A stretch of DNA of 64,000 bases, taken from assembly GCA_963781585.1 (NCBI GenBank), contig CAWAGQ010000009.1:32001-96000 (forward strand). Reading direction: 5' to 3'. Below are positions 7,177 through 63,674 of this stretch, in pieces. Within the stretch, counting starts at the first letter, position 1; every line of letters begins with the position of its first letter. This stretch comes from an uncultured Gemmatimonadaceae bacterium. GTDB taxonomy: Bacteria > Gemmatimonadota > Gemmatimonadetes > Gemmatimonadales > Gemmatimonadaceae. Position numbers and translations under genes: made by a program. Under the pieces are notes generated by a model that was given only the letters and a program-made list of their open reading frames with translations, searched no databases and was not told the origin of the DNA.

Positions 7177-7366
7177 GCTCGGGGCTGGAAGGGGTGGTGG
7201 CGACAGTCGGTGACGGCTGGTGATCGAACCTGCTGCATGGTGCGCGTTGGCACAATGCGTCCGGCGGGCCAACCGAGCCGGCGTTAGGCAGCCGGGCGCC
7301 GGAGGAACTGACACGCTTGCCGCCGGGTGCGACCGGGAGTCGGGACCTCAGCGGCTACCGTGCATC

Positions 7367-7443
7367 TAACTGGCAACATGCATATTGCCGGTCCAAGAAC
7401 GAGAGTCCGCAATTATATCTGGCATTAATACATTTGTCGGTTA
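7367..7443. promoter_or_regulatory. Two tandem imperfect 28-bp palindromes (putative operators) in an AT-rich divergent promoter
   Basis: TAACTGGCAA-N8-TTGCCGGTCC (7367-7394) and TATCTGGCAT-N8-TTGTCGGTTA (7416-7443). Confidence 0.55.
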
Positions 7444-7517
7444 GATTGCCGTCCGTGGCCAGGACCAATGGCTCAATGGGCGGCTCGACATACCGTCGCA
7501 ATAAACCGGAACTCCCA

Positions 7518-8824: not shown

Positions 8825-8838
8825 GGAGGGGGGGGCAC

Positions 8839-9231
8839 ATGATCTTCTGGTTCATCGCGATTGGCAGCGCGTTAGGCGGCGTGAGCCGCTACGCGCTCAG
8901 CGTCGCCATACAGAATCGGTCAGGCGCGGTGTTCCCCGCCGGCACGTTGATCGTAAATGTGACCGGGTCTGTCGTCGCCGCCTTCCTGCTCCGCTACGCG
9001 CTCGAATCGCCGGCGATCACTCCGCAAACGCGTGCCCTGCTGGTGACGGGGTTCTGCGGAGCGTATACGACCTTCTCCACCTTCAGCTACGAAACGGTGA
9101 AGCTGGTGCAGGACGGCGATTATCGCCGGGCGGCACTCAACGTCGTCCTGAACGTGGGGCTGGCGCTGGTGGCCGCGTTCATCGGATTCGCCGCCGCGCA
9201 CGAAGCGCTGCAGCTGCGTCGCCATTTCTGA
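8839..9231 (+). CDS. crcB: Fluoride efflux channel Fluc/CrcB
   Basis: GSALGGVSRY, GTLIVNVTGS and TGFCGAYTTFSTFSYE; four TM segments; GGAGG RBS. Confidence 0.95.
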   Translation: MIFWFIAIGSALGGVSRYALSVAIQNRSGAVFPAGTLIVNVTGSVVAAFLLRYALESPAITPQTRALLVTGFCGAYTTFSTFSYETVKLVQDGDYRRAALNVVLNVGLALVAAFIGFAAAHEALQLRRHF

Positions 9232-15983: not shown

Positions 15984-17495
15984 TCACCACTCGAAGTGCC
16001 TGTGCCCCCATCCGCGGCGTTTCCTGGGAAAGTCGCTGCGGTAGTGTCCTCCCCGGGATTCCTTTCGCGCCAGCGCTGCTTTCGCCACCAGGGACGCCGT
16101 CTCGCACATGTTGCGCTCCTCGGTGGCACCGGCAGGGAGTCGCTCGCGAATCTCGGCCAGCGTCCGGAGACACGCGCGAAGCCCGCGCGCGTTGCGGTCG
16201 ATCGCCGCGTGTTCCCACATGACGGCACGGACGGCGTCGGACGCCACCTGGGCGGCACCCCGGTCAGGGAGCGGCGGCACGCTCCAGCGTCCTGCGCGAC
16301 GGGGGGCGGCAGCGCGGGGCACGGACTCGAGATCGCGGGCCACGCGTTCCGCGAAGACGAGCCCTTCCAGGAGCGAGTTGGAGGCCAGGCGGTTGGCCCC
16401 GTGCACGCCGGTGCACGACACTTCACCGCAGGCATAGAGATGCGGCGTCCCGGACCGGCCCCGCAGGTCGGTGACGATGCCGCCCATCATGTAGTGCGCA
16501 GCCGGCGTGACCGGAATCAGGTCGTGCCGCGGGTCGATACCCCGGGCGAGACAAATGGCGAAGATGCCCGGGAAGCGCTCCGGGAAGTGATCGCCTAACG
16601 AACGGGCGTCGAGCCAGACCCGCCCGGTGCGTTGGCGCTCCCTGAAGATCTCGCGCGCCACGACGTCGCGTGGCGCGAGCTCGGCCGCCCGATGCCGTCG
16701 CGGCATGAACCGTTTCAGATCCCCGTTCAGGAGCACCGCTCCCTCTCCCCTCACCGCTTCGGAGATGAGCGACAGCGGGTTTTCCCGCGCATCGAGGGCG
16801 GTGGGATGGAACTGAACGAACTCCATGTCGGCCAGGCGCACGCCGGCGCGGTGGGCGACGGCGTAGCCGTCACCGGTGGCCACGATGGGATTGGTCGTAT
16901 AGCGATAGATCTGACCGCAGCCGCCGGTGGCGAGCACGGTGGCGTCGGCTCTGATCTCCACCGGCTGCCCTCGCACGCTCGCCCGAACGCCGGCGCATCG
17001 ACCGGACTCGACGATCAGCTCCAGCACCCGGGCCTTCTCCAGCGCGCGTGTTCGGGCGCTTTCGCGCACCCGCTCCACGAGGGTGCGCGCAACTTCGGCG
17101 CCGGTGCGGTCGCCGTGCGAATGGACGATGCGCCGCCGCGAATGCGCGGCTTCCCGCCCGAGCGCGAGGGTCCCGGCCGGCGTGAGGTCGAACTCGACAC
17201 CCGCAAGCTGGAGCTCGCGAACGCGAGCCGGACCTTCCTCCACCAGCACCTTCACGGCGCGCTCGTCACAGAGCGCGGCCCCGGCGGCCAGCGTGTCCCG
17301 GCGGTGCAGCGCCGGAGAGTCACCTGCGCCGAGGGCGGCGGCGATGCCACCCTGGGCGTAGGCGGTCGCGCTGTCAAAGAGAGATCGCTTGGTCAGCACG
17401 ACCACGTCGCCGTGCTGCGCCGCCCGCCACGCCGTGTGAAGCCCCGCGACGCCACTCCCGACCACCAGGAATCGCGTTCGCATCAGAGATGGCAT
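15984..17495 (-). CDS. nadB: L-aspartate oxidase
   Basis: VVGSGVAGL, AQGGIA, QFHPT, LISEAVRGEG and GVHGANRLASNSLLE. Confidence 0.95.
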   Translation of the reverse strand: MPSLMRTRFLVVGSGVAGLHTAWRAAQHGDVVVLTKRSLFDSATAYAQGGIAAALGAGDSPALHRRDTLAAGAALCDERAVKVLVEEGPARVRELQLAGVEFDLTPAGTLALGREAAHSRRRIVHSHGDRTGAEVARTLVERVRESARTRALEKARVLELIVESGRCAGVRASVRGQPVEIRADATVLATGGCGQIYRYTTNPIVATGDGYAVAHRAGVRLADMEFVQFHPTALDARENPLSLISEAVRGEGAVLLNGDLKRFMPRRHRAAELAPRDVVAREIFRERQRTGRVWLDARSLGDHFPERFPGIFAICLARGIDPRHDLIPVTPAAHYMMGGIVTDLRGRSGTPHLYACGEVSCTGVHGANRLASNSLLEGLVFAERVARDLESVPRAAAPRRAGRWSVPPLPDRGAAQVASDAVRAVMWEHAAIDRNARGLRACLRTLAEIRERLPAGATEERNMCETASLVAKAALARKESRGGHYRSDFPRKRRGWGHRHFEW

Positions 17496-18979: not shown

Positions 18980-19023
18980 TCGACGCGCCGGCCCGGCAAA
19001 CCTTCACACCTAACGAGCACATC

Positions 19024-20851: not shown

Positions 20852-22432
20852 GTGACCGCGGCCCTGGAGGCCCGGGGAATCCGGAAGTCGTTCGGTGCGG
20901 TGGTGGCCAACCGCGGCGCGTCGCTTCAGGTCGCGCGTGGCGGGATTCACGCGGTGGTAGGCGAGAACGGCGCCGGAAAGTCGACGCTGATGCGCATTCT
21001 GGCCGGACTCATTCGGCCGGATGACGGTACGGTCCTGGTGAGCGGCCGCGATGTGACCGGCTGGACGACTCGCGAGGCGATCGCCGCCGGGGTCGGCATG
21101 GTGCACCAGCACTTCATGCTCGTCCCGACCCTCACTGTCGGCGAGAACCTGGTGCTGGGGCGTGAGATGACGCAGGGCCCCTGGCTGGATCGCGCCGCGG
21201 CCGATCGCGCGGTTGTCTCGTTAGGTGTGGAGACCGGTCTGGTGGTCGCCCCCGATCGCCTGGTGGCCGGGTTGACGGTGGGCGAGGCCCAGCGGGTGGA
21301 GATCCTCAAGGTGCTGTGGCGCGGGGCGCGGATCCTGATCCTCGACGAACCAACGGCGGTTCTGTCGCCGCCCGAAGTGCGGGAACTCTGGGCCGTGCTG
21401 CGTCGCCTGCGTGACGCCGACGCCGCCGTCGTCCTGATCACGCACAAGCTGGACGAGGTCATCGAGATTTCCGATACGGTCACGGTCATGCGCGCCGGCG
21501 AGACGGTGGAGCGTCTTGCCACTCGGGAGGCCACACCCTCGGCGCTTGCGAGAATGATGGTGGGCCGCGATGTAGAGCTGGTATCGGTCGGAGCGGCGAT
21601 GACGGACCATGACCCCGGCGCTCCGACGCGGGGAACGGATCGCGCAGCCGGTGTGCCGCCAGAGGCCGACCAACCGCCGGCGCTGGTGGTCCGGGAACTC
21701 AGCGTGACCACGCCGCTTCGACCTCGCGCGGTGGACCGCGTCACGTTCGCGGTCGCTCCCGGCGAGATTCTCGGGATCGCCGGGGTGGAGGGGAACGGGC
21801 AGACCGAACTGGTGGAGGCGGTGGCGGGGCTGCGGGAGGTCTCGTCGGGGAGCGTGCGGCTGGGCGACCGCGACATCACGCATGCGTCGGTTCGTGGGCG
21901 CAGCGATTGCGGGCTGTCGCATATTCCGGAGGACCGCCAGCACCGTGGTCTGATTCTCGATTTCCCGGTGGCGGACAACCTCATCCTGGGACAGCAGCAT
22001 CGGTTTTCCAGGCGCGGAGCGATCGAGCGCGACGAGGTCGCGGCCAATGCGCGGCACCAGATCGCGGCGTTCGACATCCGGCCGCCCGAACCGTTGCTCG
22101 CGGCGCGCGCGTTGTCCGGCGGCAATCAGCAGAAGGTGGTTGTGGCCCGCGAGATGGGGCGCGACTTCACGGTGCTGGTGGCAGCCCAGCCCACGCGTGG
22201 CGTGGATGTGGGTGCGATCGAGTTCATCCACGCACAGCTGCGCGCGGCGCGCGACGCGGGAAAGGCGGTGATCCTCGTCTCGGCGGACCTGGCCGAGGTG
22301 CTCTCGCTCTCCGATCGGGTCGCGGTCATGTTCGGCGGCCGGTTCGTCGCCGTGCTTTCACGCGCAGCGGCCACGGTGGAGGTGGTGGGGCGGTACATGA
22401 CGGGGCTGTCGGGCACGGGGGCCGCGGCGTGA
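20852..22432 (+). CDS. ABC transporter ATP-binding protein (CUT2/nucleoside type, double domain)
   Basis: GENGAGKST, LDEPTAVL, LSGGNQQK and AQPTRGVD. Confidence 0.95.
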   Translation: MTAALEARGIRKSFGAVVANRGASLQVARGGIHAVVGENGAGKSTLMRILAGLIRPDDGTVLVSGRDVTGWTTREAIAAGVGMVHQHFMLVPTLTVGENLVLGREMTQGPWLDRAAADRAVVSLGVETGLVVAPDRLVAGLTVGEAQRVEILKVLWRGARILILDEPTAVLSPPEVRELWAVLRRLRDADAAVVLITHKLDEVIEISDTVTVMRAGETVERLATREATPSALARMMVGRDVELVSVGAAMTDHDPGAPTRGTDRAAGVPPEADQPPALVVRELSVTTPLRPRAVDRVTFAVAPGEILGIAGVEGNGQTELVEAVAGLREVSSGSVRLGDRDITHASVRGRSDCGLSHIPEDRQHRGLILDFPVADNLILGQQHRFSRRGAIERDEVAANARHQIAAFDIRPPEPLLAARALSGGNQQKVVVAREMGRDFTVLVAAQPTRGVDVGAIEFIHAQLRAARDAGKAVILVSADLAEVLSLSDRVAVMFGGRFVAVLSRAAATVEVVGRYMTGLSGTGAAA

Positions 22433-23484
22433 CCTCCGGATCGCGGATGGCGACGGTGGTGCTGCCGGCGCTGCTGGCGCTCCTGATCGCGGCGGTGGTG
22501 GGCGACGTGCTGATCGTGTCGTTCGGGCAGCCGCCCGGGAGCGTGTTCCGCCTGTTGCTGGAGGGGACGTGGGGGAACGCGTACGGCCTGGGCCAGGTGC
22601 TGTACAAGGCGACGACGCTCTCGTTCACCGGCCTGTCCGTCGCGTTAGGCATCCGGGCGGGGTTGTTCAACGTCGGGGCGGAGAGTCAACTGGCGGTGGG
22701 CGGCTTCTGCGCCGCGCTGGCCGGCCTGGCACTTCCCGCCGGCGCCCCGGCCCCGGTGGCGGTGGGGCTCTGCCTGGCGGCCGCGGCGTTAGGCGGGGGG
22801 CTGGCCGGTGCCGTGCCGGGCGTCCTCAAGGCACGCTTCGGCGCCAGCGAAGTCATTGTCACCATCATGCTCAACTTCGTCATCCTGGCGCTCCTGAACT
22901 GGATCGTGTCATCCCGGCTGCACGTGGCCGAGTCGCTGCACACAGGGACGATTCACGCCGGGGCGGTGCCGCGCCTGTCGGCCGCGGCCTCCATGTTCCA
23001 CGGGTCGGCGGCGAACTTCACGATGCTGTTCGCGGCCAGCGCCGCGGTGCTGACCGGATGGTACCTCTTCCGCACCCGGGCCGGATACGATCTGCGCGCG
23101 GTGGGACTGCAGCCCGGGGCGGCGCAGTATGGCGGCGTGCGGGTGGGAAATGTCTACCTCTGGACACTCATCCTCTCGGGCGCGCTCGCCGGCCTGGGAG
23201 GAACCAACTACGTGCTGGGTTACAAGCGGTACTACGAGGACGGATTCGCGGGCGGCGCCGGCTTTCTGGGAATCGCGGTTGCGCTGGTGGGGCGCAATCA
23301 TCCCGCCGGGGTCGTCGTCGCCGCGCTGCTGTTCGCGACGATCTCCCAGGGCGGTCTGGCCGTGAACGCCCTCGTGCCGAAGCAGATGGTCGAGGTGCTG
23401 ACGGCGGTGGTGATCATCGCCGTCGCAGCCACTGTCCCCGAGGTACAGCGGATGCTGCGGGCCGCTCGCCGGGCGCCGTCATGA
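22429..23484 (+). CDS. ABC transporter permease
   Basis: GLFNVGAESQ, EVIVTIMLN and GFLGIAVALVG; GTGA overlap with the ATPase gene. Confidence 0.9.
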   Translation: MTSGSRMATVVLPALLALLIAAVVGDVLIVSFGQPPGSVFRLLLEGTWGNAYGLGQVLYKATTLSFTGLSVALGIRAGLFNVGAESQLAVGGFCAALAGLALPAGAPAPVAVGLCLAAAALGGGLAGAVPGVLKARFGASEVIVTIMLNFVILALLNWIVSSRLHVAESLHTGTIHAGAVPRLSAAASMFHGSAANFTMLFAASAAVLTGWYLFRTRAGYDLRAVGLQPGAAQYGGVRVGNVYLWTLILSGALAGLGGTNYVLGYKRYYEDGFAGGAGFLGIAVALVGRNHPAGVVVAALLFATISQGGLAVNALVPKQMVEVLTAVVIIAVAATVPEVQRMLRAARRAPS

Positions 23485-24401: not shown

Positions 24402-25931
24402 ATGCCACTCGAGGTGGGCAGCGGCTTCGAATCGCCGCTCGTGCGTGCCGGGCTGGCCGTCATTGGGGCCGCGCTGCTGTACGTGCTGGCCCGCGAGGTT
24501 CGGAAGATCCCGCCCAAGCTCTTCGTGCTGATGGCCACGGCGTTCATCGACATGCTGGGGCTGCTGATGATCATCCCGCTGCTGCCCTTCTACGTGAAGC
24601 AGCTCGGTGGCAACGGGTTCCAGCTGTTCGGGACCCGGGTGGGGATCGGGATGATCACCGGATTCATCGTGTCGGCGTTCACGGTGGCACAGTTGCTCAG
24701 TTCACCGATGTGGGGGCGCTTCTCGGACCGCTTCGGGCGCCGACCGGCGTTGCTCATCGCACTGGGCGCCGAGGGCATCGCTTTCCTGATATTCGGATTT
24801 GCGAACTCGCTGTGGCTGCTGTTCCTGTCGCGGATCGTCCAGGGCGCCGGCGGCGGGACGGTCGGGGTGATCCAGGCCTATGTGGCCGACGCCACCGAAC
24901 CGGAGAACCGGGCCCGCAGCCTGGGCTGGCTGTCGGCGGCCACCAACCTGGGCGTGGCGCTGGGCCCGGTACTGGGAACATTCGCTGTCTCGTTAGGCGA
25001 GCAGGATCTGCTGCCGGGTGCGGGCACGCTGCACATGGGGCGGGCCGCCCCCGGAATCGCCGCCGCCTGCCTCTGCTTCCTCAACATCCTGTTCGCGCGC
25101 CGGTACCTCACCGAGACGCGCCATTCGGCCCTGCACCGGCACCAGCCGCAACGACGCTCGCGCGAGGCGGTGCGGCGGGTCATTACGCACTCCGCCGAGC
25201 CGGCGTCGCGCCTGATCTGGATCTACGCGATCGCCATGGGCGCGTTCAACGGCGCCACGGCTGTGCTGGCGCTCTTCCTCAACGCCCGGTTCCAGGTCAC
25301 CGAGAAGACCATCGGGTACTTCTTCATGTACATCGGCGCCATCTCGGTCTTCACCCGCGTGCTGCTGCTGGGCAAGGCGGTGGACCGGCTGGGCGAGGCC
25401 CGCCTGTCGCGGGTCGGCGTGGTGTTACTGTCACTCGGCCTGGCGCTGATGCCGCTGTCGCGCCACCTCGGGATGCTCGCATTCGCTGTGGCCCTCATTC
25501 CGTTGGGCACCGCGTTCACCTTCCCCTGCGTCACCTCGCTCCTGTCGCGGGTAATCTCGCCCGACGAGCGCGGCCTGTTCATGGGCCTGCAGCAGACCTT
25601 CGGGGGCGTGGCCCGCGTCATCGCCCCGCTCTGGGCCGGATTCGCCTTCGACCATCTCGGGATCGGGGTGCCGTTCTACAGCGCGGCGGTGTTCGTCCTC
25701 GCCACTATCTCGCTCGGACTCGGCCTCGACCAGTACGCGAAGCACAGCGTGCCGGCCGCGGGAGTGAGCTCGCAATCCGCGGCGGCCATGGCAGCGGTCC
25801 CGGAATCGCCGGGTGACGGGAAGATGGCGCATCTCGCCCCCGCTGCCGGGGCGGCGATCGCCGACGCGCATCGCACCGCCGCCCCCGTCCCCGGTCCGGT
25901 ACCGCACGCTTCCCCACCCCGATCCGACTGA
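24402..25931 (+). CDS. MFS transporter (TetA/DHA1-like)
   Basis: Motif A GRFSDRFGRRP, AYVADAT and GPVLG; about 12 TM segments. Confidence 0.9.
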   Translation: MPLEVGSGFESPLVRAGLAVIGAALLYVLAREVRKIPPKLFVLMATAFIDMLGLLMIIPLLPFYVKQLGGNGFQLFGTRVGIGMITGFIVSAFTVAQLLSSPMWGRFSDRFGRRPALLIALGAEGIAFLIFGFANSLWLLFLSRIVQGAGGGTVGVIQAYVADATEPENRARSLGWLSAATNLGVALGPVLGTFAVSLGEQDLLPGAGTLHMGRAAPGIAAACLCFLNILFARRYLTETRHSALHRHQPQRRSREAVRRVITHSAEPASRLIWIYAIAMGAFNGATAVLALFLNARFQVTEKTIGYFFMYIGAISVFTRVLLLGKAVDRLGEARLSRVGVVLLSLGLALMPLSRHLGMLAFAVALIPLGTAFTFPCVTSLLSRVISPDERGLFMGLQQTFGGVARVIAPLWAGFAFDHLGIGVPFYSAAVFVLATISLGLGLDQYAKHSVPAAGVSSQSAAAMAAVPESPGDGKMAHLAPAAGAAIADAHRTAAPVPGPVPHASPPRSD

Positions 25932-36734: not shown

Positions 36735-36769
36735 CGGCGAAGTGTAACGTCAGCGCAGGGGGAGTTCCC

Positions 36770-37366
36770 ATGGCACAACGTGGACGAACTGACGCGGCTC
36801 AGAGGGAGGGCAGTTCCCTTGCGACGCTGTCATCTCACTGGTTGCCGCGACGCTCCTGGCGCTCACGGTGGGTTCGCACCGCCGGGCGAGCTGCGACCGC
36901 GGCGGCATTGGTGGCCGGCACAGCAGGCTGCGGCGCGATCACCACCGCTGAGGAAGTAGCCGCGGATACCGTGTCGGCGCCGGGGATCGACGTCGTTGCC
37001 GACGGTGGGATCGCGGCGCTCCACACCATGGCACACATCGACAGTGCCACCGGCGCCGCGTACTGGGTGTTCCGGGCCATCTGCGCACCGGCAGTCAATT
37101 GCACCCCCAACGACTCCCTCAACGGCAAGGTGACGGGCAGCCTGGTCGAGAACCTGTATGAGCGCGCCGCGACACCGGAATTCCGCGCTCTGCGACGCGA
37201 CTATGGCGTCACCGTGGGCAGCGCCGACATGCGCGCCTATACGCTGATCATCCGCGCGAACGGGACGTCCCGGACGCTGCGGGCCGACGATGGAACCATG
37301 CCCACTCTGATGGCGCAGTTCGTGAACGATGTGACGCTCGCGGTCAACGACGTGGTGAGGCGTTAG
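36770..37366 (+). CDS. Hypothetical lipoprotein; start uncertain
   Basis: AAALVAGTAGC lipobox-like segment; GGGGAG RBS before ATG 36770. Confidence 0.6.
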   Translation: MAQRGRTDAAQREGSSLATLSSHWLPRRSWRSRWVRTAGRAATAAALVAGTAGCGAITTAEEVAADTVSAPGIDVVADGGIAALHTMAHIDSATGAAYWVFRAICAPAVNCTPNDSLNGKVTGSLVENLYERAATPEFRALRRDYGVTVGSADMRAYTLIIRANGTSRTLRADDGTMPTLMAQFVNDVTLAVNDVVRR

Positions 37367-37377
37367 GTACCGGCGGA

Positions 37378-42750: not shown

Positions 42751-43748
42751 CAGTAATAGCGGCGCAAATCCATTCCGGCGTAGAGCCTCGCCACCTGGTC
42801 CGCGTAGCCGTTGAACATCAGTGTCGGCTTCGACCGGAAACTGCCGATGATGCGCTCCCGGGCCTGGCTCCACCGGGGATGGTCCACCTCGGGATTCACG
42901 TTCGCGTAGAACCCGTACTCGTTAGGCGCGGCCACGTTCCATGCCGTCCTCGGCTCCTTGTCGGTGAGCCGGATCTTCACAATCGACTTGCATCCCTTGA
43001 ACCCGTACTTCCACGGCACCACGTGGCGCAGCGGCGCACCGTTCTGGCCCGGCAGCATCTTCCCGTACACTCCCACCACGAACAACGCCAGCGGATGCAT
43101 CGCCTCATCCATCCGCAGCCCTTCCACGTAGGGCCACTCCAGCACCGGAATCCGTTGACCGGGCATCTGCTTCGGATCGTAGAGCGTCGTCAGCTCGACA
43201 TACTTTGCCGAGGGCTGCGGCTGCGCCGCCTTGAGCAGATCGGCCATCGGGAAGCCCATCCACGGAATGACCATCGACCACGCCTCCACACAACGGTGCC
43301 GGTAGATCCGCTCCTCCAGCTTGTACGGCTTGATGAAGTCCTCGAGATGGTAGTCCGCCGGCTTCGCCACCATCCCTTCCACCCGCACCGTCCACGGCGT
43401 GGTGCGGAAGTTCTTCGCGTTGGCCGCGGGATCTTCCTTGTCCGTCCCGAACTCATAGAAGTTGTTGTAGCCGGTCACGTCGTCCAGTGACGTCAGTTCC
43501 TTCCTCAGCTCGGCGCCGAACTCCGGGGTGCCCTGGCCGCCCGGTGTGGGCTCCGCGTCACCCGGGACGCTGCCCCCGACGCCGCGCACCGCGTCGAGGG
43601 CGCGAGCCAGAGCCGGTGCGGCCACGCTGGCGGCGGCGATTCCGAGCAGGCCGGCCTTCCGCAGGAAATCGCGGCGCCCATGATATGTCGCCTCGTCAGT
43701 GATCTCCGACGAGCGGACCGGATGCGGCGGAGTGACACGAATCAGCAT
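42750..43748 (-). CDS. msrP: Protein-methionine-sulfoxide reductase catalytic molybdo-subunit
   Basis: Tat motif [40 protein letters not shown] and [10 protein letters not shown]. Confidence 0.96.
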
Positions 43749-49466: not shown

Positions 49467-50797
49467 TAGCCACCCTGTTTCTCGTCGCGGCCGCCTTCGC
49501 GCAGGACACCTCGCACCTGACGCTCTCGCAGGTGGTGGATCGCGCTCTTGCCACACATCCATCCGTTGCCGCGGCGCGGGCGCGGCGTGACCACGCCGCG
49601 GCCGAGGTGGGTGAGGCCCGCTCGACCACCAGACCCCGGCTCCTTCTCGACGCATCGGTGAACCAGTTCCAGGAGCCGATGGTCATCGCTCCGCTCCATC
49701 GATTCGATCCCCGGAATCCGCCCTTGTTCGATCGCACACTGGTGCAGTCGGCGCTCTCTCTGAACTGGACGGTCTTCGACTTCGGGAGCCGCGCTGCCGG
49801 TGTCCGTGCGCAGCGGGCGCTCGAAGACGCAGCCGACGACGCGGTCACCAGCGCTACATCGGATCTCATCGCGCAGACGGCCAACGCCTACCTGGAAGCG
49901 CTGACGGCGCGCGAGGTGCTGGCCGCGCAGGATCAGCGACTGACAGCGCTGTCGGCGGAAGCGGACCGCGTGGGCCAGCGACTCGCGCAGGGGAAGGCGG
50001 CCCAGGTCGAGCAGCTGCGTGTGACCGCCGCGTTGAAGCGCGCGGAGGCCGATCGGATTGCGGGAGCGTCGCGACTCGACGTCGCCGAGCGTCAGGTGGC
50101 ACAGCTGACCGATCTGCCGTACACCGACGTGCACCGTTCGACGTTAGGCGGACTGCGGCTGGCCGACACGGCGTTCGCTGCGGACACCACGGCCCGGCTC
50201 CGTGCGTCGCTGGTGGATGCGGCGGATCGGGCCAGCCCGCAGGTGCGGGAGCTGCAGGATCGGGTACGCGCCGCCGGTGCCGGACTCACCGCAGTCCGAG
50301 CCACCGCGCTCCCCGAGCTCCGGCTCGGCAGCGCGTACGTGGATCGCGGCCGGTGGTGGGCCGATTACCGGGCGGAATGGCAGGTCGGCCTGTCGGTCTC
50401 GTATTCGCTCTACGGGGGCGGCTCGCAGTCCAGCGCGATCCGGAAGGCCGCCGCTGACGATCGCGCCGCCGGCGAGCAGCTCCGATTGGCCCGGATGCGC
50501 GTGGACCAGGGCGTGGATCAGGCGCTGGCGGCGCTCCACGAGGCGCACGCGCGGGTCGCCGCGCTGCGCAGCGCGGTCGAGCAGTCGGCCGAGGTCGCGC
50601 GCATCGAACGCCTGGCGCTGGACGTGGGGTCGGGAACCCAGACGGACTATCTGGCGGGGGAAGCAGACCTGCTGGCGGCCAGAGCGAGTCTCGCCGAAGC
50701 GAACCAGGCGCAGATCTCGGCGCGGATCGAACTGGCGCGCGTCGGTGGCGAGCTCTCGCGGGACTGGCTCACTCGGGTACTGGAGGTGGCGCCATGA
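49463..50797 (+). CDS. TolC-family outer membrane efflux protein
   Basis: LTLSQVVDRALATHP, WTVFDFG and two OEP-like halves; ATGA overlap. Confidence 0.9.
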   Translation: MIATLFLVAAAFAQDTSHLTLSQVVDRALATHPSVAAARARRDHAAAEVGEARSTTRPRLLLDASVNQFQEPMVIAPLHRFDPRNPPLFDRTLVQSALSLNWTVFDFGSRAAGVRAQRALEDAADDAVTSATSDLIAQTANAYLEALTAREVLAAQDQRLTALSAEADRVGQRLAQGKAAQVEQLRVTAALKRAEADRIAGASRLDVAERQVAQLTDLPYTDVHRSTLGGLRLADTAFAADTTARLRASLVDAADRASPQVRELQDRVRAAGAGLTAVRATALPELRLGSAYVDRGRWWADYRAEWQVGLSVSYSLYGGGSQSSAIRKAAADDRAAGEQLRLARMRVDQGVDQALAALHEAHARVAALRSAVEQSAEVARIERLALDVGSGTQTDYLAGEADLLAARASLAEANQAQISARIELARVGGELSRDWLTRVLEVAP

Positions 50798-53928: not shown

Positions 53929-55050
53929 ATGAATCTGAGTACCACGCGCCTGCTCGCGATCGCGCGGAAGGAGGTCGTGCAGTTGCGCCGCGATCCCCGC
54001 AGCCTGGCGATGGCGTTCGTGGTGCCGGCCGCGATGATCGTGTTCTTCGGCTACGTCATCAGTTTCGACGTCAACGACATCCGGATGGCGGTACTGGATC
54101 AGGATCACACGCCACAGAGCCGGGAGCTCGTCGCAGCGTTCGAGGCGGCCGGGCGGTTCCATGTCAGGTCGCGCCTGACGTCGTACGGCGAGATCGAACC
54201 GCTGATGGTGCGGGCCGGCGCGCGGCTCGTGCTGGTCATTCCCCCCGGCTTCCAGCGCGAGCTCTCCACCGGCGGCCCGGCGCCGATCCAGGCGATCGTC
54301 GACGGTGCCGACGCCAACACGGCGGCGATCGCACTCAACTACGCCGACGTCATCGCGGCCTCCTTTTCGGCATCCCGGTCCAGCGGCGCGGCGCGGCGGC
54401 CTGCCCCGATCGTGGTGGGCGATCGCGTCTGGTACAACGAGACGCTCGCCAGCAGCAACATGATCGTCCCCGGACTGGTGGCGATGATCATGATGATCAT
54501 CGCCGCGATGCTGACCGCGCTCACCGTGGCCCGGGAATGGGAGCGCGGCACCATGGAGCAGCTCGCGGCCACGCCGGTCCACCGCGTGGAGGTCATCATC
54601 GGCAAGCTGCTGCCGTATCTCGGCATCGGCCTGTTCGACGTCACCGCCGCGGTGCTGATCGGCATGTACGTGTTCGACGTCCCGTTCCGGGGGAGCCCGC
54701 TCCTCCTGTTCGCGATGGCGATCCTGTTCCTGCTCGGCTCGTTAGGCCTGGGGATCTGGATCAGCGCGGCCGTGAAGTCGCAGCTGCTGGCCACCCAGAC
54801 CTCAATGCTGGTCACCTTCCTGCCGTCACTGATCCTGTCGGGCCTGCTGTTCGACATCGCCAGCATGCCGATCGCGCTGCGCGCCATCTCGACGGTGGTG
54901 CCGGCGCGGTATTTCATCGTCGTGCTGCGGGGCATCTTCCTCAAGGGCGTGGGGCTCGACGTTCTCTGGACCCAGGGCGTTGCGATGGTGCTGTTCGCGA
55001 CCCTCGGCCTCGGGCTTGCCGTGCACGCATTCCGCAAGGAAATCGCATGA
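53929..55050 (+). CDS. ABC-2 permease (YbhS-like)
   Basis: KEVVQLRRD, IVPGL and AREWERGTMEQL. Confidence 0.92.
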   Translation: MNLSTTRLLAIARKEVVQLRRDPRSLAMAFVVPAAMIVFFGYVISFDVNDIRMAVLDQDHTPQSRELVAAFEAAGRFHVRSRLTSYGEIEPLMVRAGARLVLVIPPGFQRELSTGGPAPIQAIVDGADANTAAIALNYADVIAASFSASRSSGAARRPAPIVVGDRVWYNETLASSNMIVPGLVAMIMMIIAAMLTALTVAREWERGTMEQLAATPVHRVEVIIGKLLPYLGIGLFDVTAAVLIGMYVFDVPFRGSPLLLFAMAILFLLGSLGLGIWISAAVKSQLLATQTSMLVTFLPSLILSGLLFDIASMPIALRAISTVVPARYFIVVLRGIFLKGVGLDVLWTQGVAMVLFATLGLGLAVHAFRKEIA

Positions 55051-57392: not shown

Positions 57393-58444
57393 CGCGCGGC
57401 ACCACCGCGCACGCGGCGATGTTTGCGCCGCAATCGGAAGACGAGCTCGAAGATCTGCTTTCCCGGCCCACCGCCGGCGTGATCGACGCGCTGCGCGCAT
57501 GCCCTGGCGACGTGATCGTCCTGGGAGCGGGCGGCAAGATGGGACCGACGCTGGCCCGCATGGTGCGGCGGGCCGCGACCACGCTGGGCGACGGCCGTCG
57601 GGTCTTCGCGGCGTCGCGATTCTCGTCCGATCGCGCCCACGCGCAACTCGAGGCGTGGCGCGTCGAGTCCCTGCGCGTCGACCTCACCGACCAGGCGGCG
57701 CTGCGCGCCCTGCCCGACGTGCCTAACGTGATTTGCATGGCCGGGCAGAAGTTCGGCACCCGCGAGCTCCCTTCCCTCACCTGGGTCACCAACACGGTCG
57801 TCCCGGCGCTGGTGGCCGAGCGGTATCGCGAGGCGCGGATCGTGACGTTCTCCACCGGCAACGTCTATCCGCTGACTCCGGCGTCAGGCAGCGGGTCGCG
57901 CGAAACGGACGCACTCGGCCCGCTGGGCGAGTACGCCTGGTCGTGCGTGGGGCGCGAGCGGGTGCTGGAGCAGGCGTCGCGCGCGCGCGGGACCGCGATG
58001 GCGATCGTGCGGTTGAACTACGCGGTCGATCTGCGCTATGGGGTGCTGGTGGATCTCGCCCGCCGCGTCGCGGCCGGGGAACCGGTCGATCTCCGGATGG
58101 GCGCAGTGAACGTGATCTGGCAGGGGGACGCGACCGCGCAGGCGATTCAGTGTCTGCCGCACGCGGCGGTGCCCCCGTTCGTGGTAAACGTCACGGGTCC
58201 GGAGCGTCTGTCGGTGCGCGCACTGGCGCTCGAGCTGGGGCGTCACGTCGGTCGGGAGCCGGTGTTCTCCGGGAGCGAGGAAGCCGATGCACTGCTGAGC
58301 GACACCCGGCTCGCGCAATCGCTGTTCGGCCGGCCGGCGGTCTCGGCGGAGACGCTGGTGGCGTGGACCGCGGAGTGGCTGCGGGCGGGGCATCCCACGT
58401 CAGGCAGGGCCACGCATTTCGAGGAACGCGAGGGCACCTTCTGA
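57389..58444 (+). CDS. NAD-dependent epimerase/dehydratase family protein
   Basis: VLGAGGKMG, MAGQKFG, FSTGNVY and RLNYA; ATGA overlap. Confidence 0.88.
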   Translation: MTRGTTAHAAMFAPQSEDELEDLLSRPTAGVIDALRACPGDVIVLGAGGKMGPTLARMVRRAATTLGDGRRVFAASRFSSDRAHAQLEAWRVESLRVDLTDQAALRALPDVPNVICMAGQKFGTRELPSLTWVTNTVVPALVAERYREARIVTFSTGNVYPLTPASGSGSRETDALGPLGEYAWSCVGRERVLEQASRARGTAMAIVRLNYAVDLRYGVLVDLARRVAAGEPVDLRMGAVNVIWQGDATAQAIQCLPHAAVPPFVVNVTGPERLSVRALALELGRHVGREPVFSGSEEADALLSDTRLAQSLFGRPAVSAETLVAWTAEWLRAGHPTSGRATHFEEREGTF

Positions 58445-59484
58445 ACGTCCGTCGCCACCTGCTCACCGGCACGGTCATCCCGGCGCACCCGCTGGCCCTC
58501 ACGCCGCGCCGGACGCTCGACGAGCGCCGGCAGCAGGCCCTCACGCGGTACTACCTGGACGCCGGCGCCGGCGGCCTCGCGGTCGCCGTGCACACCACCC
58601 AGTTCGCCATTCGGGGACCGCGCGTCGGGCTGCTGCGACCGGTTCTGTCGCTGGCGGCCGACACGGCGCGGAGCTGGCGCGATCCCGCGCGTCCGGTTGC
58701 CCTGGTGGCCGGCATCTGCGGCGACACGAAACAGGCGGTGATGGAGGCCTCGCTGGCCGCGTCGCTCGGCTACCACGCGGGGCTGGTGAGCCTCGCGGCA
58801 CTGGGTGACGCCAGCGACGACCGGCTGCTCCGGCACTGCCGCGCCGTGGCCGACGTCCTGCCGCTGTTCGGCTTCTACCTGCAGCCGGCCGTGGGCGGAC
58901 GGGCGTTAGGCTACCGCTTCTGGCGGGAGCTGGCCGAACTCGCCGGATTGATCGCCGTGAAAATCGCGCCGTTCAGCCGCTACGCCACGCTCGACGTGGT
59001 GCGCGCCATGGCCGATGCCGGCCGGGACGACGTGGCGCTCTACACCGGCAACGACGACTCGATCATCCTCGACCTGCTCACGTCCTTTCCGTTCGGCGCC
59101 GGCGGCCGCGTTGGCGAGCGGCGGATCGTAGGCGGACTGCTCGGACAGTGGGCAGTGTGGACGCACCGGGCCGTGGAACTCCTTGCCGAAACGCGACGCG
59201 CGTCGTCAAGGGCGCAGATGGGCCGGCGCTGGCTGGCGCGCGCCGCCGCGCTGACTGATGCCAACGGTGCGATCTTCGATGCGTCGAACGGCTTCGCCGG
59301 CTCCATCCCCGGCATCCACGAGGTCCTGCGCCGACAGGGACTGCTGCGCGGCACGTGGTGCCTCGATCCCCGGGAACGGATGTCGCCGGGTCAGTCTCGC
59401 GAGATCGACCGGGTGCTGCGGAGCTATCCGGAGCTCACGGACGACGAATTCGTGGCCGGGAATCTGGATCGGTGGATGGCGTAG
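58441..59484 (+). CDS. Dihydrodipicolinate synthase (class I aldolase) family protein; probable CTG start
   Basis: VIPAHPLAL, GGLAVAVHTTQF, FYLQP, VKIAPF and LYTGNDD. Confidence 0.85.
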   Translation: MNVRRHLLTGTVIPAHPLALTPRRTLDERRQQALTRYYLDAGAGGLAVAVHTTQFAIRGPRVGLLRPVLSLAADTARSWRDPARPVALVAGICGDTKQAVMEASLAASLGYHAGLVSLAALGDASDDRLLRHCRAVADVLPLFGFYLQPAVGGRALGYRFWRELAELAGLIAVKIAPFSRYATLDVVRAMADAGRDDVALYTGNDDSIILDLLTSFPFGAGGRVGERRIVGGLLGQWAVWTHRAVELLAETRRASSRAQMGRRWLARAAALTDANGAIFDASNGFAGSIPGIHEVLRRQGLLRGTWCLDPRERMSPGQSREIDRVLRSYPELTDDEFVAGNLDRWMA

Positions 59485-59612
59485 GTATCCGGTGAGTCCA
59501 GGGTCCAGAGGGCTGCATGCCCGAACCCGGGAATTCCGGCAGCTCGATCTCGGTGCAATCGATTGACTCGGCGCGCATTCGAATGGTACTTCAGATGGAC
59601 GCTTCCGGAGCT

Positions 59613-59993
59613 ATGATGACGGACGAAATGGGAATCCTCCGCGTGGATGTGACAATCGAGAACCAGCTGCGACCGGGCGAGAGCCGGGTTCTCCGCGGAG
59701 TCATGGTCGATACCGGGGCGGAACTATCCTGGGCTCCAGCCGATGTCCTGGAGGCGCTTGGCATCGCTCGCGTGAAACGCATCGCATTCCAGCAGGCGGA
59801 CGGGACCGTCCTCGACCGGTGGGTTGGCTTCGCCGTGCTGCACGCCGAGGGGGCCGTCACCGTTGACGAGATCGTCTTTGGCGCGCCTGACGACCTGGTG
59901 CTGCTCGGCGCACGCACGTTGGAAGGGATGAACCTGAAGATCGACCTCACCGCAAAGCGGTTGGTGGCCGGCGGACCCATGATGGCCGCCTAA
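59613..59993 (+). CDS. Small retropepsin-like (clan AA) aspartyl protease
   Basis: MVDTGAELSW and LLGARTLE motifs. Confidence 0.8.
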   Translation: MMTDEMGILRVDVTIENQLRPGESRVLRGVMVDTGAELSWAPADVLEALGIARVKRIAFQQADGTVLDRWVGFAVLHAEGAVTVDEIVFGAPDDLVLLGARTLEGMNLKIDLTAKRLVAGGPMMAA

Positions 59994-60787
59994 CGCCGCG
60001 GCGCCACCCAGTGCTTCGCGGTCGTCCAGGTCGCTGGTGAGAAGAGCCCCGTATCGATCGCCACATCGACCTTCCAGTCCGCATACTGCTCCGCCTGACG
60101 ACGCACGCCGTTGACGGACATCGCGATCTGCGTCGCCAGCCATCCCTTCCCAACGGCCACGTATCCGTCGAGGTGAATGTCCATCGGCGGGGTGGTGGGA
60201 GACGGCTGGAGGATCATCCGTACTACGACGTCGCGTTGCGCGTCGATCCAGATCTGTGGCGAGGTCGTGTCCGTCGCGGTCGCGACACCGATGATCCATA
60301 CGCGGCGGCCCCGCCACGTTCCCGGCGTCACCCGGCTCATGTCTACTCCAGTAGGTGTCAGCTCGCGCACCGTCTCGTCCACCGGCTGCAGATACACGCC
60401 CTCGATGAGCGGGAGGAACTCGTTGCCGCCCGCGCGCGACGTGGCCAGCTTCCCGTCGCGCACCCGATAGGTCGAATCAGCGCTGAAGAGCACGCCATTG
60501 CCGAGTGACGGCTCGCCGATGTCGATCCGGAGCCAGGTGCCATGGTCGGGCGTGTGGCGGAGGGTCTCGTACCAAGTCTCGACAGTGTCAGTGCCATTTG
60601 GCTGGCGCAGCGTGGTCGTCTGCCGGAAGATGAGTGTGCGGTACCACTGCCCCTGATAGGCATCGTGCATGCGCTGCAGCACCTCGGCGCCGGAACGCGG
60701 TACATCCGCCTGGGCGTCGAGGCGTGCGGCCACGATGGAGAGGCCGGCAACCCAGATCGCGGCGATACGTCGAGACGGGAGATGCAT
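59990..60787 (-). CDS. Secreted hypothetical protein (possible LolA-like beta-rich fold)
   Basis: Signal peptide MHLPSRR...LDAQA; WYRTLIFRQ.T, ETWYE, LRID and IWID. Confidence 0.7.
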   Translation of the reverse strand: MHLPSRRIAAIWVAGLSIVAARLDAQADVPRSGAEVLQRMHDAYQGQWYRTLIFRQTTTLRQPNGTDTVETWYETLRHTPDHGTWLRIDIGEPSLGNGVLFSADSTYRVRDGKLATSRAGGNEFLPLIEGVYLQPVDETVRELTPTGVDMSRVTPGTWRGRRVWIIGVATATDTTSPQIWIDAQRDVVVRMILQPSPTTPPMDIHLDGYVAVGKGWLATQIAMSVNGVRRQAEQYADWKVDVAIDTGLFSPATWTTAKHWVAPRR

Positions 60788-61223
60788 GGTCGATAGTCCG
60801 TCGGTGGGAGAAACGAGTCGCGTGTCAGGGACGAACACCGCGGCACGAGGTCGGCCCGGAGACGGGAGAAGAGTCGTTGCGCGGACGGAGCGCGCGCCAG
60901 ACCCAGGCACATCACCGATGCTCTGGTCGGCTGCTGTGGGAGATCCGGCCGCCGGCCTTCCGCACCACGGCGACGGAGAGTAGTTCCTCCAGGCCGTATT
61001 CGCCACCATGTGGCCCGGCGGTCCCGACGGGCTTGGCTGACGTCGTGGCAGACGCGTCGGGCATTGGCGCAACGCCCGATCGCGACCCGACTACGCATCA
61101 TCCCCGGCCAGTCGCAAGTCGTACCACATTGAACGATTCGACCCCCGCAATTGTCCACATAGTACGAACATTTCGCTTCCCGTTTCCCGTCGCCCCGCAC
61201 TCCTCCCGTCCCCTCGCGCCATC

Positions 61224-63674
61224 ATGGACACGCTCCTGAAGGACCTGCGCTACGGGCTGCGCCGGGTGCGCAAGAGCCCTGGTTTCTCCACCATCGTCGT
61301 GCTCACGCTGGCGCTCGGCATCGGCGCCAACACGGCGATCTTCACCGTGGTCAACACGGTGCTGCTCCGTCCGTTTCCCTACCGGAACCCGGAGAGGCTC
61401 GTCACCATCGATCACTTCTATCCGTCGCTGAACAATCTCGAGGCGGGGGCATCGGCCCCCGGATTCCGCGACCTGCGCGACAAGGGAGAGATTTTCGACG
61501 GCGTGTTCGTGGAGTCGGGATGGGGGCCGGCGCTGACCGGGATGGGGGAGGCGCGCCGCCTGACCGGTGTCCGCGTCTCGGCGCAGTACTTCAGCACGCT
61601 GGGGGTGAGTCCGGCGCGGGGTCGAGCGCTTCTCCCCGAAGAGGACCAGCCCGGTCACAACAAGTTCGTGGTGATCTCGAACGGGCTCTGGCAGCGCGAG
61701 TTCGGCGGGGATGCGAGCACCGTAGGCCGCTCGATACTCCTCGACAACGAACAGTACCAGATCGTGGGCGTGATGCCGCCGGGGTTTCAGGATTTCTTCC
61801 GTCCCAACAGCGAGATCTGGTCGCCCATCGCACTGCCACCGGCGGCGTTCTCGGACGACCGCCGCACCAACGAGAACATGTCGCTGATCGCGCGGCTCAA
61901 ACCGGGCGTGAGTATCGAGCAGGCACACGCGCGCATGACGGCGTTCGCCGACCAGCTCAAGCAGCAATACCCGAACAATTACGGGCGCACCTGGACCCTC
62001 AAGGTGGCCACGCTCACCGAGAAGAAGAGTGGGCGCATCAAGCCGGCGCTGCTGGTGCTGCTCGGAGCGGTTGGCTTTGTGCTCCTCATTGCCTGCGCCA
62101 ACGTCGCCAATCTGCTGCTGGCGCGGGCGGCCGCGCGTCTCAAGGAGGTCGCGATCCGGTCGGCGTTAGGCGCGAGCCGCCGCGTCCTGGTACGCCAGTT
62201 GCTGGTGGAGAGCCTGCTGCTGGCCCTGATCGGCGGAACGTTGGGCGTGGGGCTGGCGTGGGCCGGAGTGAAGGGTGTGGTGGCGCTTCAGCCGGCCAAC
62301 GTGCCGCGCGTCGACCAGCTCGGCCTGGACGGCACGGTGCTCGGCTTCGCGCTCCTGGTCACGCTGGTGACAGGCCTGCTCTTCGGGATGGTCCCGGCGT
62401 TGCAGACGTCGCGCGGGAACCTGCAGGAGACGCTCAAGGAAGGCGGACGGACGTCGTCGGCCGACCGGAGCGGCCATCGGCTGCGGCAGGCACTGGTGGT
62501 GGCCGAGATGGCGCTGGCGCTGACGCTGCTGGCGGGAGCTGGACTGCTGGTGAAGAGCTTTGCACGCCTGGCCGGCGTGAATCCCGGATTCGATCCCGAT
62601 CGCCTGCTGACCTTCAACGTGGGGCTGGCCGCGGCGAAGTACCCGAGCGACACAGCGCAGCGGGGATTCTGGAATGCCGCTCTGCCGCGGATCGCCGCGG
62701 TGCCCGGGGTGCAGGGCGTCGCGGTCACGTCGACGCTCCCGTTCAGCGGGAACTGGTCCACCGGTAGCTTCTCGGTGGAAGGGTATCAGCCGGCCAAGGG
62801 CCAGCCGGGTCCGTGGGGCGACTTGCGCGTCGTCAATGCCGATTTCTTCAAGGCGATGCGAGTTCCCCTGCTCAAGGGCCGCGCGTTCGACCCCGGCGAC
62901 GACGAGCGTGCACCGGTGCGGGCGATCGTCGACGAGGAAGCGGTCCGGCGGTTCTGGCCCGACGTCGATCCGATCGGCAAGCGGATCACCTTCGGCAACG
63001 CCGAGGATACCAGCGCCCATTGGATCACGGTGGTGGGGGTGGTGGGTCATACCAAGCACGAGGGACTCGACGCCGAGAACCGGTTGCAGGTCTACTTCCC
63101 GATGGCGCAGGCCGCGTCGCTCGGGGCCGGCACGCGCTTCATGTCGTTGGCCGTGCGCACCACCGGCGATCCGCTGCGCGCGCTTCCTGCCGTGTCGGCC
63201 GCGATTCACGAGATCGACCGGGATGTGCCGGTATCGAACACGTCGTCGATGGACGACCTGATCGCGAATTCGATGGGTCAGCGGCGGTTTGCGATGCTCC
63301 TGCTGGTGCTTTTTTCGGCGCTCGCGCTCACGCTGGCCTCGATCGGGATCTACGGCGTGATGTCGTTCTCGGTCACCCAGCGCGCGCACGAGCTCGGCGT
63401 TCGCATGACCCTGGGGGCCACCCGCCGCGACGTGCTCGCGCTCGTTATGCGGAACGGGATGATCCTGGCCCTGCTGGGGGTGGCGATCGGCATCGCCGGG
63501 GCGATCGCGATGCGGCGGGTGATCGCCAACCAGTTGTTCGCGGTGCGGCCGGACGATCCGGCCACGCTGGTGGTGGTGGCGGTCACGCTGATGGTGGTGG
63601 CCGCGGCCGCGATCTTCATCCCCGCGTTACGGGCAACGCGGGTGGATCCGGTGGTGGCGTTGCGGGAGGAATAG
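61224..63674 (+). CDS. ADOP-type duplicated MacB/FtsX ABC permease
   Basis: DLRYGLR..KSPGF...LALGIGANTAIF, LLIACANVANLLLAR, GIYGVMSF.V.QR..ELGVR and RATRVDPVVALR. Confidence 0.93.
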   Translation: MDTLLKDLRYGLRRVRKSPGFSTIVVLTLALGIGANTAIFTVVNTVLLRPFPYRNPERLVTIDHFYPSLNNLEAGASAPGFRDLRDKGEIFDGVFVESGWGPALTGMGEARRLTGVRVSAQYFSTLGVSPARGRALLPEEDQPGHNKFVVISNGLWQREFGGDASTVGRSILLDNEQYQIVGVMPPGFQDFFRPNSEIWSPIALPPAAFSDDRRTNENMSLIARLKPGVSIEQAHARMTAFADQLKQQYPNNYGRTWTLKVATLTEKKSGRIKPALLVLLGAVGFVLLIACANVANLLLARAAARLKEVAIRSALGASRRVLVRQLLVESLLLALIGGTLGVGLAWAGVKGVVALQPANVPRVDQLGLDGTVLGFALLVTLVTGLLFGMVPALQTSRGNLQETLKEGGRTSSADRSGHRLRQALVVAEMALALTLLAGAGLLVKSFARLAGVNPGFDPDRLLTFNVGLAAAKYPSDTAQRGFWNAALPRIAAVPGVQGVAVTSTLPFSGNWSTGSFSVEGYQPAKGQPGPWGDLRVVNADFFKAMRVPLLKGRAFDPGDDERAPVRAIVDEEAVRRFWPDVDPIGKRITFGNAEDTSAHWITVVGVVGHTKHEGLDAENRLQVYFPMAQAASLGAGTRFMSLAVRTTGDPLRALPAVSAAIHEIDRDVPVSNTSSMDDLIANSMGQRRFAMLLLVLFSALALTLASIGIYGVMSFSVTQRAHELGVRMTLGATRRDVLALVMRNGMILALLGVAIGIAGAIAMRRVIANQLFAVRPDDPATLVVVAVTLMVVAAAAIFIPALRATRVDPVVALREE

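Follow-up and report, generated by a model that had tools for sequence, protein, structure and literature searches.

Which force keeps one eight-base word recurring through ordinary genes is the question raised by a stretch of 64,000 nucleotides from an uncultured Gemmatimonadaceae bacterium (contig CAWAGQ010000009.1, positions 32,001 to 96,000), here called the window, in which CGTTAGGC was found to occur 18 times (11 copies on the plus strand and seven on the minus strand by exact count). Counted as CGTTAGGY, the word has 21 copies (13 plus, eight minus). A first-pass annotation had placed these copies by eye; each of its positions proved right, both of its totals were reproduced, and the exact count revealed no others. 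In its full form, CGTTAGGCR, this is a hyper-abundant DNA word common to the Gemmatimonadaceae-like genome of the window and to Gemmatirosa kalamazoonensis. The force behind it acts on double-stranded DNA, being strand-symmetric and without replicon polarity and overriding codon preference and some residues. The first-pass proposal of a force on DNA rather than on protein, of the kind known from uptake sequences and from the highly iterated palindrome HIP1, was supported by every test run.

Abundance of the word in the window

The G+C content of the window is 67.8%, close to the 69% that had been estimated by eye. In 100 dinucleotide-preserving shuffles of the window CGTTAGGC appeared 0.93 times on average and never more than four times, compared with the 18 copies seen, and CGTTAGGY appeared 1.40 times on average with a largest value of eight, compared with 21. 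The third-order Markov expectation is 0.49, and CGTTAGGC is the top-ranked 8-mer of the window. In a maximal-order Markov ranking the word does not come out on top because its own sub-words carry the signal, and the third-order model was used instead. Codon usage was controlled for by 1000 rounds in which synonymous codons were permuted within each of 49 curated gene segments of the window (the cyclophilin gene at 19025-19734 being left out of the codon counts). The shuffled genes held 0.73 +/- 0.82 copies of CGTTAGGC with a maximum of four, against 16 coding copies in the original, and the enrichment thus survives when codons are preserved.

The word is non-palindromic, differing from its reverse complement GCCTAACG. 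On the two strands of the window all 21 occurrences of TTAGG, and 21 of the 25 occurrences of TTAG, lie inside CGTTAGGY. The flanks of the copies show no conservation apart from a purine that immediately follows, on the 3' side, 15 of the 18 copies of CGTTAGGC. As the flanks are unconserved both here and in Gemmatirosa, the word is neither a mobile element nor the remnant of one. Chance, codon usage, a mobile-element remnant and a polarity like that of the FtsK orienting polar sequences (KOPS) were all rejected as explanations, on the shuffles, the unconserved flanks and the orientation counts given below.

Location of the copies

The genes of the window, as recognized by Pfam matches in 52 open reading frames (ORFs) and by codon-position G+C, are ordinary housekeeping and transport genes. 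Those named include crcB, nadA/B/C, sucA, msrPQ, TolC-like, HlyD and ABC efflux genes, MFS and SSF transporters and a MacB-like permease. The copies are situated as follows, each being CGTTAGGC unless given as the CGTTAGGT variant.

7282..7289, plus strand: either upstream of an M20 peptidase gene (minus strand) or within a doubtful N-terminal extension of it, in the divergent region preceding a CGNR regulator gene
8870..8877, plus strand: sense GCG-TTA-GGC (A-L-G), crcB
16593..16600, minus strand: sense TCG-TTA-GGC (S-L-G), nadB
19008..19015, minus strand: CGTTAGGT variant, intergenic and antisense to a cyclophilin-type isomerase gene, its end 9 nt ahead of that gene's ATG (19025)
21219..21226, plus strand: CGTTAGGT variant, sense TCG-TTA-GGT, ABC ATPase
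22643..22650, plus strand: sense GCG-TTA-GGC, ABC permease 1 (frame of ORF 21907..23484)
22787..22794, plus strand: sense GCG-TTA-GGC, ABC permease 1
24991..24998, plus strand: sense TCG-TTA-GGC, MFS transporter
28456..28463, minus strand: sense ACG-TTA-GGC, sodium:solute symporter
30089..30096, plus strand: antisense to a PIG-L-domain gene, which reads CTG-CCT-AAC-GGC (L-P-N-G)
32349..32356, minus strand: sense TCG-TTA-GGC, PIG-L-domain gene
34809..34816, minus strand: sense CCG-TTA-GGC (P-L-G), sucA
37361..37368, plus strand: CGTTAGGT variant, CGT-TAG being the stop of ORF 36722..37366 (no Pfam match)
40922..40929, minus strand: sense GCG-TTA-GGC, second sodium:solute symporter
42920..42927, plus strand: antisense to msrP, which reads GCG-CCT-AAC-GAG (A-P-N-E)
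50142..50149, plus strand: sense ACG-TTA-GGC, TolC-like outer-membrane efflux protein
54740..54747, plus strand: sense TCG-TTA-GGC, ABC-2 permease
57721..57728, minus strand: antisense to an epimerase-family gene, which reads GTG-CCT-AAC-GTG (V-P-N-V)
58904..58911, plus strand: sense GCG-TTA-GGC, unnamed gene (about 58450-59484)
59988..59995, minus strand: across the overlapping stops of two convergent ORFs
62164..62171, plus strand: sense GCG-TTA-GGC, MacB-like permease

The frames assigned in the first-pass annotation were borne out, with 14 copies reading xCG-TTA-GGY in the sense direction, three (30089, 42920 and 57721) reading CCT-AAC in the antisense direction and two (37361 and 59988) lying at stop codons. 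The remaining two (7282 and 19008), described there as between genes, are both outside clear coding sequence. At the second of the stop sites the convergent ORFs 59517..59993 (plus) and 59990..61072 (minus) overlap by 4 nt (59990-59993), and the TAA of the former and the TAG of the latter both fall within one copy of the word. Few other TTA codons are present, as had been remarked: among the 19,344 codons of the window TTA occurs in frame 20 times, and 14 of these are motif copies. Nor is TTA equally frequent elsewhere, since it is used in 14 of 28 NCG-Leu-GGY contexts compared with six of 2007 other Leu codons (Fisher P = 7e-24). The word is pressed into every tolerated place, namely [S/P/T/A]-Leu-Gly by way of TTA, Pro-Asn on the opposite strand, stops and spacers.

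Some further features of the window were recorded. A terminator-like structure was seen by eye past the stop that the word supplies at 37364-37366: at 37381-37466 a T-run comes after an inverted repeat, CGGGGTCAG ... CTGACCCCG. The cyclophilin-type peptidyl-prolyl isomerase gene (19025-19734) has, as read by eye, a signal-peptide-like start. A crcB gene and a DUF190 gene are found at 8338-9231, yet the whole window yielded no Rfam match at the gathering score, for the fluoride riboswitch or any other family, and no tRNA was found in it. Among the 52 ORFs scanned with Pfam there was no integrase domain, no pilin or competence gene and no DNA methyltransferase, an RlmL-type RNA enzyme being the only methyltransferase seen.

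The word in the megaplasmids of Gemmatirosa kalamazoonensis

Strain KBS708 has a chromosome and three circular elements (accessions CP007127-CP007130; PMC3974934), and two megaplasmids of it were reached through a protein search of a plasmid collection. Plasmid 2 contributed nine and plasmid 1 one of the ten 50-kb stretches sampled, together 500 kb out of about 2.15 Mb, and genes were called with our own heuristic based on G+C at third codon positions (GC3), with a coverage of 0.81-0.94. GTTAGGC was found 380 times in the 500 kb, or about once per 1.3 kb (180 plus, 200 minus), 327 of these copies being CGTTAGGC and 42 TGTTAGGC. The expectation is 0.29 copies under a third-order Markov model trained on motif-masked sequence, and when codons were shuffled in three of the ten stretches, 2.65 +/- 1.73 copies resulted, compared with 79 coding copies observed. 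The enrichment therefore extends beyond the window and is denser still in the megaplasmids, the word being common to two genomes of unlike G+C content (68% in the window and 72-74% in Gemmatirosa). The sample holds 384 occurrences of TTAGG in all, and 380 of its 592 TTA trinucleotides are within the word. No orthologue of the window proteins was detected among the Gemmatirosa stretches sampled, the best match being 42% identical.

With respect to genes, 177 of the 380 copies are sense xCG-TTA-GGC, 82 antisense CCT-AAC, 73 intergenic, 23 at gene 3' ends (TAG or TAA stops), 14 antisense CTA-ACG and 11 sense GTT-AGG, no stop-free frame being left unused. A direct census of stop codons showed that the word supplies 16 of the 60 TAG stops and nine of the 21 TAA stops of the sample. 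Its density is 2.7 times higher between genes than within them (1.69 compared with 0.62 per kb). In 74 intergenic copies the preceding base is C in 63 and the following base a purine in 64; the purine, being kept there, is part of the DNA word, and with the preceding C the unconstrained word is CGTTAGGCR.

Word density climbs with local G+C content (Spearman 0.43, P = 1e-5, 100 bins), which for a word containing A+T fits a slow build-up in resident DNA. The longest motif-free stretches (L083:23403-31288, L090:20927-27248 and L088:41645-50000; G+C 0.69-0.71) contain two pairs of SusC/SusD-type receptors along with a glycosyltransferase/ABC/ParA-ParB region, and may represent more recently acquired DNA or a plasmid partition region. 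On plasmid 1 (L082:35995-36061) tandem 15-bp units with the word repeat CCGCCGTTAGGCGTC about four times.

Coding frames and codon cost

Opportunities were counted as every peptide able to carry the word by synonymous choice alone, and the motif-coded share of each class is given below.

[SPTA]-L-G, sense NCG-TTA-GGC: 14/76 in the window, 143/606 (24%) in Gemmatirosa
x-P-N-[VADEG], antisense CCT-AAC: 3/11 in the window, 74/137 (54%) in Gemmatirosa
[SRGC]-L-T, antisense CTA-ACG: 0/33 in the window, 14/199 (7%) in Gemmatirosa
x-V-R-[LPHQR], sense GTT-AGG: 0/40 in the window, 11/425 (2.6%) in Gemmatirosa

The cheapest codon combinations are used most in Gemmatirosa, where saturation is highest in the antisense Pro-Asn frame, and in both genomes frame use tracks codon cost independently of the sense strand. 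Per opportunity, sense copies (14/116) and antisense copies (3/44) in the window do not differ (P = 0.40), and the sense excess there (14 compared with 3) is an effect of opportunity and no true bias.

These counts bear on a signal at the level of translation or mRNA, in which the rare TTA of NCG-TTA-GGY would act as a pause or as a bldA-type regulatory codon. It would account for the 14 of 21 window copies that are sense xCG-TTA-GGY, and for the presence of 14 of the 20 TTA codons in that context, and many of the carriers are membrane proteins. It leaves aside seven of the 21 window copies and 203 of the 380 Gemmatirosa copies, which are not TTA codons at all (being in antisense or another frame, between genes or at stops), while the most saturated frame is an antisense one (74/137 compared with 143/606) and the sense/antisense difference in the window is gone per opportunity. 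The non-TTA copies and the saturated antisense frame in effect refute a purely translational signal as sole cause, and any signal of this kind is considered highly improbable.

Orientation and spacing

In the window the orientation of the word follows that of the genes because of coding opportunity, and all five sense copies in minus-strand genes are on the minus strand. The cumulative G-C skew climbs across the whole window, whose G-rich strand bears 13 of the 21 copies (P = 0.38). In Gemmatirosa the share of copies on the plus strand varies between pieces from 0.29 to 0.68, tracking gene orientation. No skew with replication was found in the window or the Gemmatirosa pieces, which are partial replicons in which a weak skew is possible. 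A Chi-like recombination hotspot, with RecBCD or AddAB reading one strand, would suit an 8-nt non-palindromic word at one copy per 1.3-3 kb, since known Chi sites are similar in size and spacing, and the 13 of 21 copies on the G-rich strand, if this is taken as the leading strand, lean in the same direction. That proportion is not significant, however, and both in the window and in Gemmatirosa (180 plus, 200 minus) orientation follows the genes and not the replicon. Known Chi words, moreover, consist of common codons and are only few-fold enriched, whereas the present word relies on the rarest Leu codon, with an enrichment of at least 20-fold. A Chi-like role is thus thought very unlikely.

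Spacing in the window is slightly more even than random (coefficient of variation, CV, 0.69; P = 0.046), and in Gemmatirosa it is near random (CV 0.88; count variance/mean 0.78 per 5 kb). This somewhat even spacing would be in keeping with a binding site for a chromosome-organising or nucleoid-associated protein, selected where each copy sits, and a role of this type has reportedly been proposed for HIP1 by Xu et al. The word is carried by the chromosome-like window and by both megaplasmids, and an asymmetric 9-bp word is of a size that one protein domain could presumably read. The evenness is weak, no candidate protein was identified, and selection on any one of thousands of sites would be tiny, yet residues are overridden and 16 of 60 TAG and nine of 21 TAA stops are supplied by the word. 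Such a binding site is regarded as quite unlikely.

Close pairs are not in excess in Gemmatirosa, where 17 gaps of at most 60 nt were counted compared with 17.0 expected, most of them between direct repeats. Neither are inverted pairs, the -/+ orientation being found in six of 33 neighbour pairs at most 150 nt apart. Of the 14 neighbour pairs up to 40 nt apart, 12 are direct repeats. These counts decide against integron-type recombination sites, which had been raised at first pass because GTTAGGC fits the core consensus GTTRRRY; in addition, GCCTAAC is present in one integron-site paper. At the spacing of attC sites, pairs of GCCTAAC...GTTAGGC are not in excess (-/+ in five of 19 neighbour pairs 41-150 nt apart), and in the window copies of opposite orientation are never less than about 1 kb apart. 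Conserved genes contain most of the copies, and an integrase domain was found in none of the 52 window ORFs. For the bulk of the copies integron sites are in effect refuted by pair orientation, gene location and the missing integrase, and the resemblance to the core site hardly deserves credence as an explanation.

Variant copies and methylation

One-off variants are enriched in Gemmatirosa, with 42 copies of TGTTAGGC compared with 0.1 expected, 71 of CGTTGGGC compared with 13 and 75 of CGTCAGGC compared with 24. Codon cost and protein function restrain the word, resulting in a balance between mutation and drive with a cloud of such variants.

The variants are relevant to a HIP1-like mechanism, in which a 5-methylcytosine (5mC) methyltransferase would read the word or its core and a methylation-dependent repair of the very-short-patch type would turn near-matches into the word; in a variant of this explanation, the methylated word itself would be the functional mark. 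Copies deviate most often by a change of C to T at one or the other outer cytosine (TGTTAGGC in 42 of 380 Gemmatirosa copies, CGTTAGGT in three of 21 window copies), transition neighbours are 3- to 5-fold enriched, and the first C of the word is within a CpG. These deviations resemble the end-biased ones that Elhai, as far as the text consulted goes, ties to methyltransferase cores (PMC4390886), and the size of the enrichment resembles that of HIP1, given as 15- to 300-fold over-represented in the section consulted of another paper (PMC5861425). By contrast, all HIPs are palindromic and the present word is not, single-mismatch repair alone cannot fix all eight positions, and the RlmL-type RNA enzyme is the only methyltransferase among the 52 window ORFs scanned. 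The chemistry of single-molecule real-time sequencing (SMRT) detects 5mC poorly. The SMRT methylome of G. kalamazoonensis as published lists RGATCY, ATGCAC and CCAGN7TCA only, three N6-methyladenine (m6A) motifs unrelated to the word (PMC3974934). Thousands of copies are expected genome-wide, so that an m6A or N4-methylcytosine (m4C) mark probably would have been called. The first-pass idea of a methyltransferase target is accordingly disfavoured for m6A and m4C and compatible with 5mC, and the HIP1-like mechanism as a whole is judged unlikely.

Effects on proteins

In Gemmatirosa proteins the dipeptide PN has an observed/expected ratio of 1.54, and for the tripeptides ALG, SLG and TLG the ratio is about 1.5. 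Of five window sites set against relatives, two alter a residue common to the relatives, one is at a variable residue and two are synonymous. At the sucA site the three closest relatives listed read K/M-P-Y-[A/S/G] (CCG-TAC-...) where the window has P-L-G, and Leu is found in none of 76 aligned homologues among the best 80 of at least 600 stretches examined. At the antisense PIG-L site (30089) three syntenic relatives have L-P-A-G compared with L-P-N-G in the window. The msrP site (120 homologues) usually has Pro, followed by a variable residue (H 31, D 25, N 17, Q 16, G 8, S 8). Only the codon is changed at the second PIG-L site (32349), where L-G is kept in relatives with CTA or CTC codons, and at the nadB site, where L-G is kept in five distant homologues. 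For uptake sequences it has been reported, in the portion of the study consulted, that tripeptide frequencies are roughly doubled, that frames are set by preferred codons and that the residues concerned are poorly conserved (Findlay and Redfield, 2009; PMC2817400). The protein effects found here match that pattern, in so far as it is described there.

Distribution among other relatives

A SucA protein search of genome contigs provided the best 80 of at least 600 stretches examined. The SucA matches place the window in the Gemmatimonadota, the closest among those listed having 60-63% identity and being titled Gemmatimonadaceae or Gemmatimonadetes. Exact copies of the word were absent from 74 of these 80 loci and single in each of the other six. 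Twelve of the 80 loci (235 kb) are from Gemmatimonadota, two of them titled Gemmatimonadaceae, and these hold one copy in all. Power in short DNA is limited, as CGTTAGGC ranks first in two of three 20-kb pieces of the window itself. The word is lineage-specific and patchy among the sampled relatives.

Other words were noticed in these loci. The top 8-mers of L049, L001, L015, L005 and L040 were ruled out as dispersed words, being tandem repeats. L049:491-3261 is a gene with 276-bp tandem repeats, each holding ACCGACAACGT, which gives a false k-mer signal, and L001, L015, L040 and L005 have short G/A-rich or 24-bp tandem arrays in inverted blocks. In L007:101-16638, from a 20-kb locus of a Gemmatimonadaceae metagenome-assembled genome (MAG), the 7-mer GACAGGT occurs nine times, dispersed and on a single strand, and an 8-mer overlapping it has nine copies compared with 1.15 expected. 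This could be a polar word akin to KOPS or Chi, or else a codon effect where genes share one orientation. In L023:44-22493 (22.8 kb, Gemmatimonadota MAG) the palindrome GCCATGGC is found at nine dispersed sites compared with about 1.5 expected, a HIP-like pattern.

Proposed function

The reading preferred here, by analogy and at somewhat less than an even chance, is that of an uptake-sequence-like self-recognition word spread by molecular drive. Cells would preferentially bind and take up fragments bearing the word, these fragments would then recombine into the genome, and alleles with the word would displace those without it, as in the DNA uptake sequence (DUS) of Neisseria and the uptake signal sequence (USS) of Pasteurellaceae. 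The reading is kept tentative because competence, a receptor and uptake bias are not known for the phylum.

Several points weigh against it. No literature report of sequence-specific transformation in Gemmatimonadota was found, and no mention of the word or of an uptake-like motif in the phylum, most subscription journals lying outside the coverage of the search. Inverted terminator pairs of the Neisseria type are not in excess (see the pair counts above), and the word is only 8-9 bp long. The slightly even spacing (CV 0.69 in the window, 0.88 in Gemmatirosa) could equally mean a function in place, and any strong selection at the DNA level or biased repair would give the same statistics, so that uptake is not singled out by them. 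The Gemmatirosa evidence consists of 500 kb of plasmid DNA with our own GC3-based gene calls.

The further step, that Gemmatimonadaceae practise sequence-specific natural transformation with CGTTAGGCR as uptake sequence, is offered with slightly less confidence again, on the same analogy. If true, CGTTAGGCR would, the HIP1 proposal aside, be the first uptake word outside the Proteobacteria; lineages isolated in recombination (dialects) would be marked by its patchy presence, and a comparison of genomes that have the word with genomes that lack it could reveal its receptor. As the cultured G. kalamazoonensis KBS708 bears the word at about one copy per 1.3 kb, sequence-specific uptake in the phylum is directly testable.

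Hyper-abundant short words are rare, and DUS, USS and HIP1 each opened work on how bacteria recognize their own DNA; the present case is from a poorly studied phylum abundant in soil. The word supplies most TTA codons, at least a quarter of the sampled Gemmatirosa TAG and TAA stops and measurable peptide shifts. For gene callers and codon-usage models it is a warning that rare codons can come from a non-translational source. In binning it can serve to mark the lineage, and foreign DNA can be recognized with its help; if it is an uptake signal, it could aid the development of genetic tools in Gemmatimonadota.

Comparison with known systems

Integron attC/attI sites resemble the word in that GTTAGGC matches their GTTRRRY consensus. 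The word differs in lacking a cassette context and an inverse core paired with it at the spacing of attC sites, and in that the window has no integrase. Chi and sequences of the KOPS or SpoIIIE recognition sequence (SRS) type are likewise eight-base, non-palindromic and dispersed. However, Chi and KOPS words are strongly skewed to the leading strand, whereas the present word has no replicon polarity beyond gene orientation, and it is far more enriched than Chi words are known to be.

By analogy, the word appears to work like DUS, USS and HIP1; membership of the uptake family cannot be claimed, and terminator pairs are not in excess. HIP1 (GCGATCGC) of cyanobacteria is palindromic and a known methyltransferase target, in contrast to the asymmetric word described here, which no m6A or m4C motif of the Gemmatirosa methylome matches (PMC3974934). 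It is nevertheless also an octamer hyper-abundant within and between genes and replaced or absent in some relatives, according to the parts consulted of two studies (PMC5861425; PMC4390886). The function of HIP1 was obscure for decades, and a role in DNA uptake or transformation is now proposed for it in the consulted portion of a further report (PMC13756078).

From DUS and USS the word differs in several respects. Competence, uptake bias and a receptor are not known for the Gemmatimonadota, while in Neisseria ComP is a dedicated DUS receptor. The USS and DUS words have 9-12 bp and the present one 8-9 bp, and Neisseria DUS often form inverted pairs acting as terminators, of which no excess is found for this word. 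Its host belongs to another phylum and is a soil bacterium of high G+C content. Shared with DUS and USS are a short, non-palindromic, lineage-specific word, hyper-abundant on both strands with unconserved flanks, and close relatives without it. As in those systems, the word is mostly intragenic, in the frames that are cheapest by codon usage and with the encoded tripeptides enriched; its copies fall at variable or altered residues, are denser between genes and are surrounded by a cloud of one-off variants.

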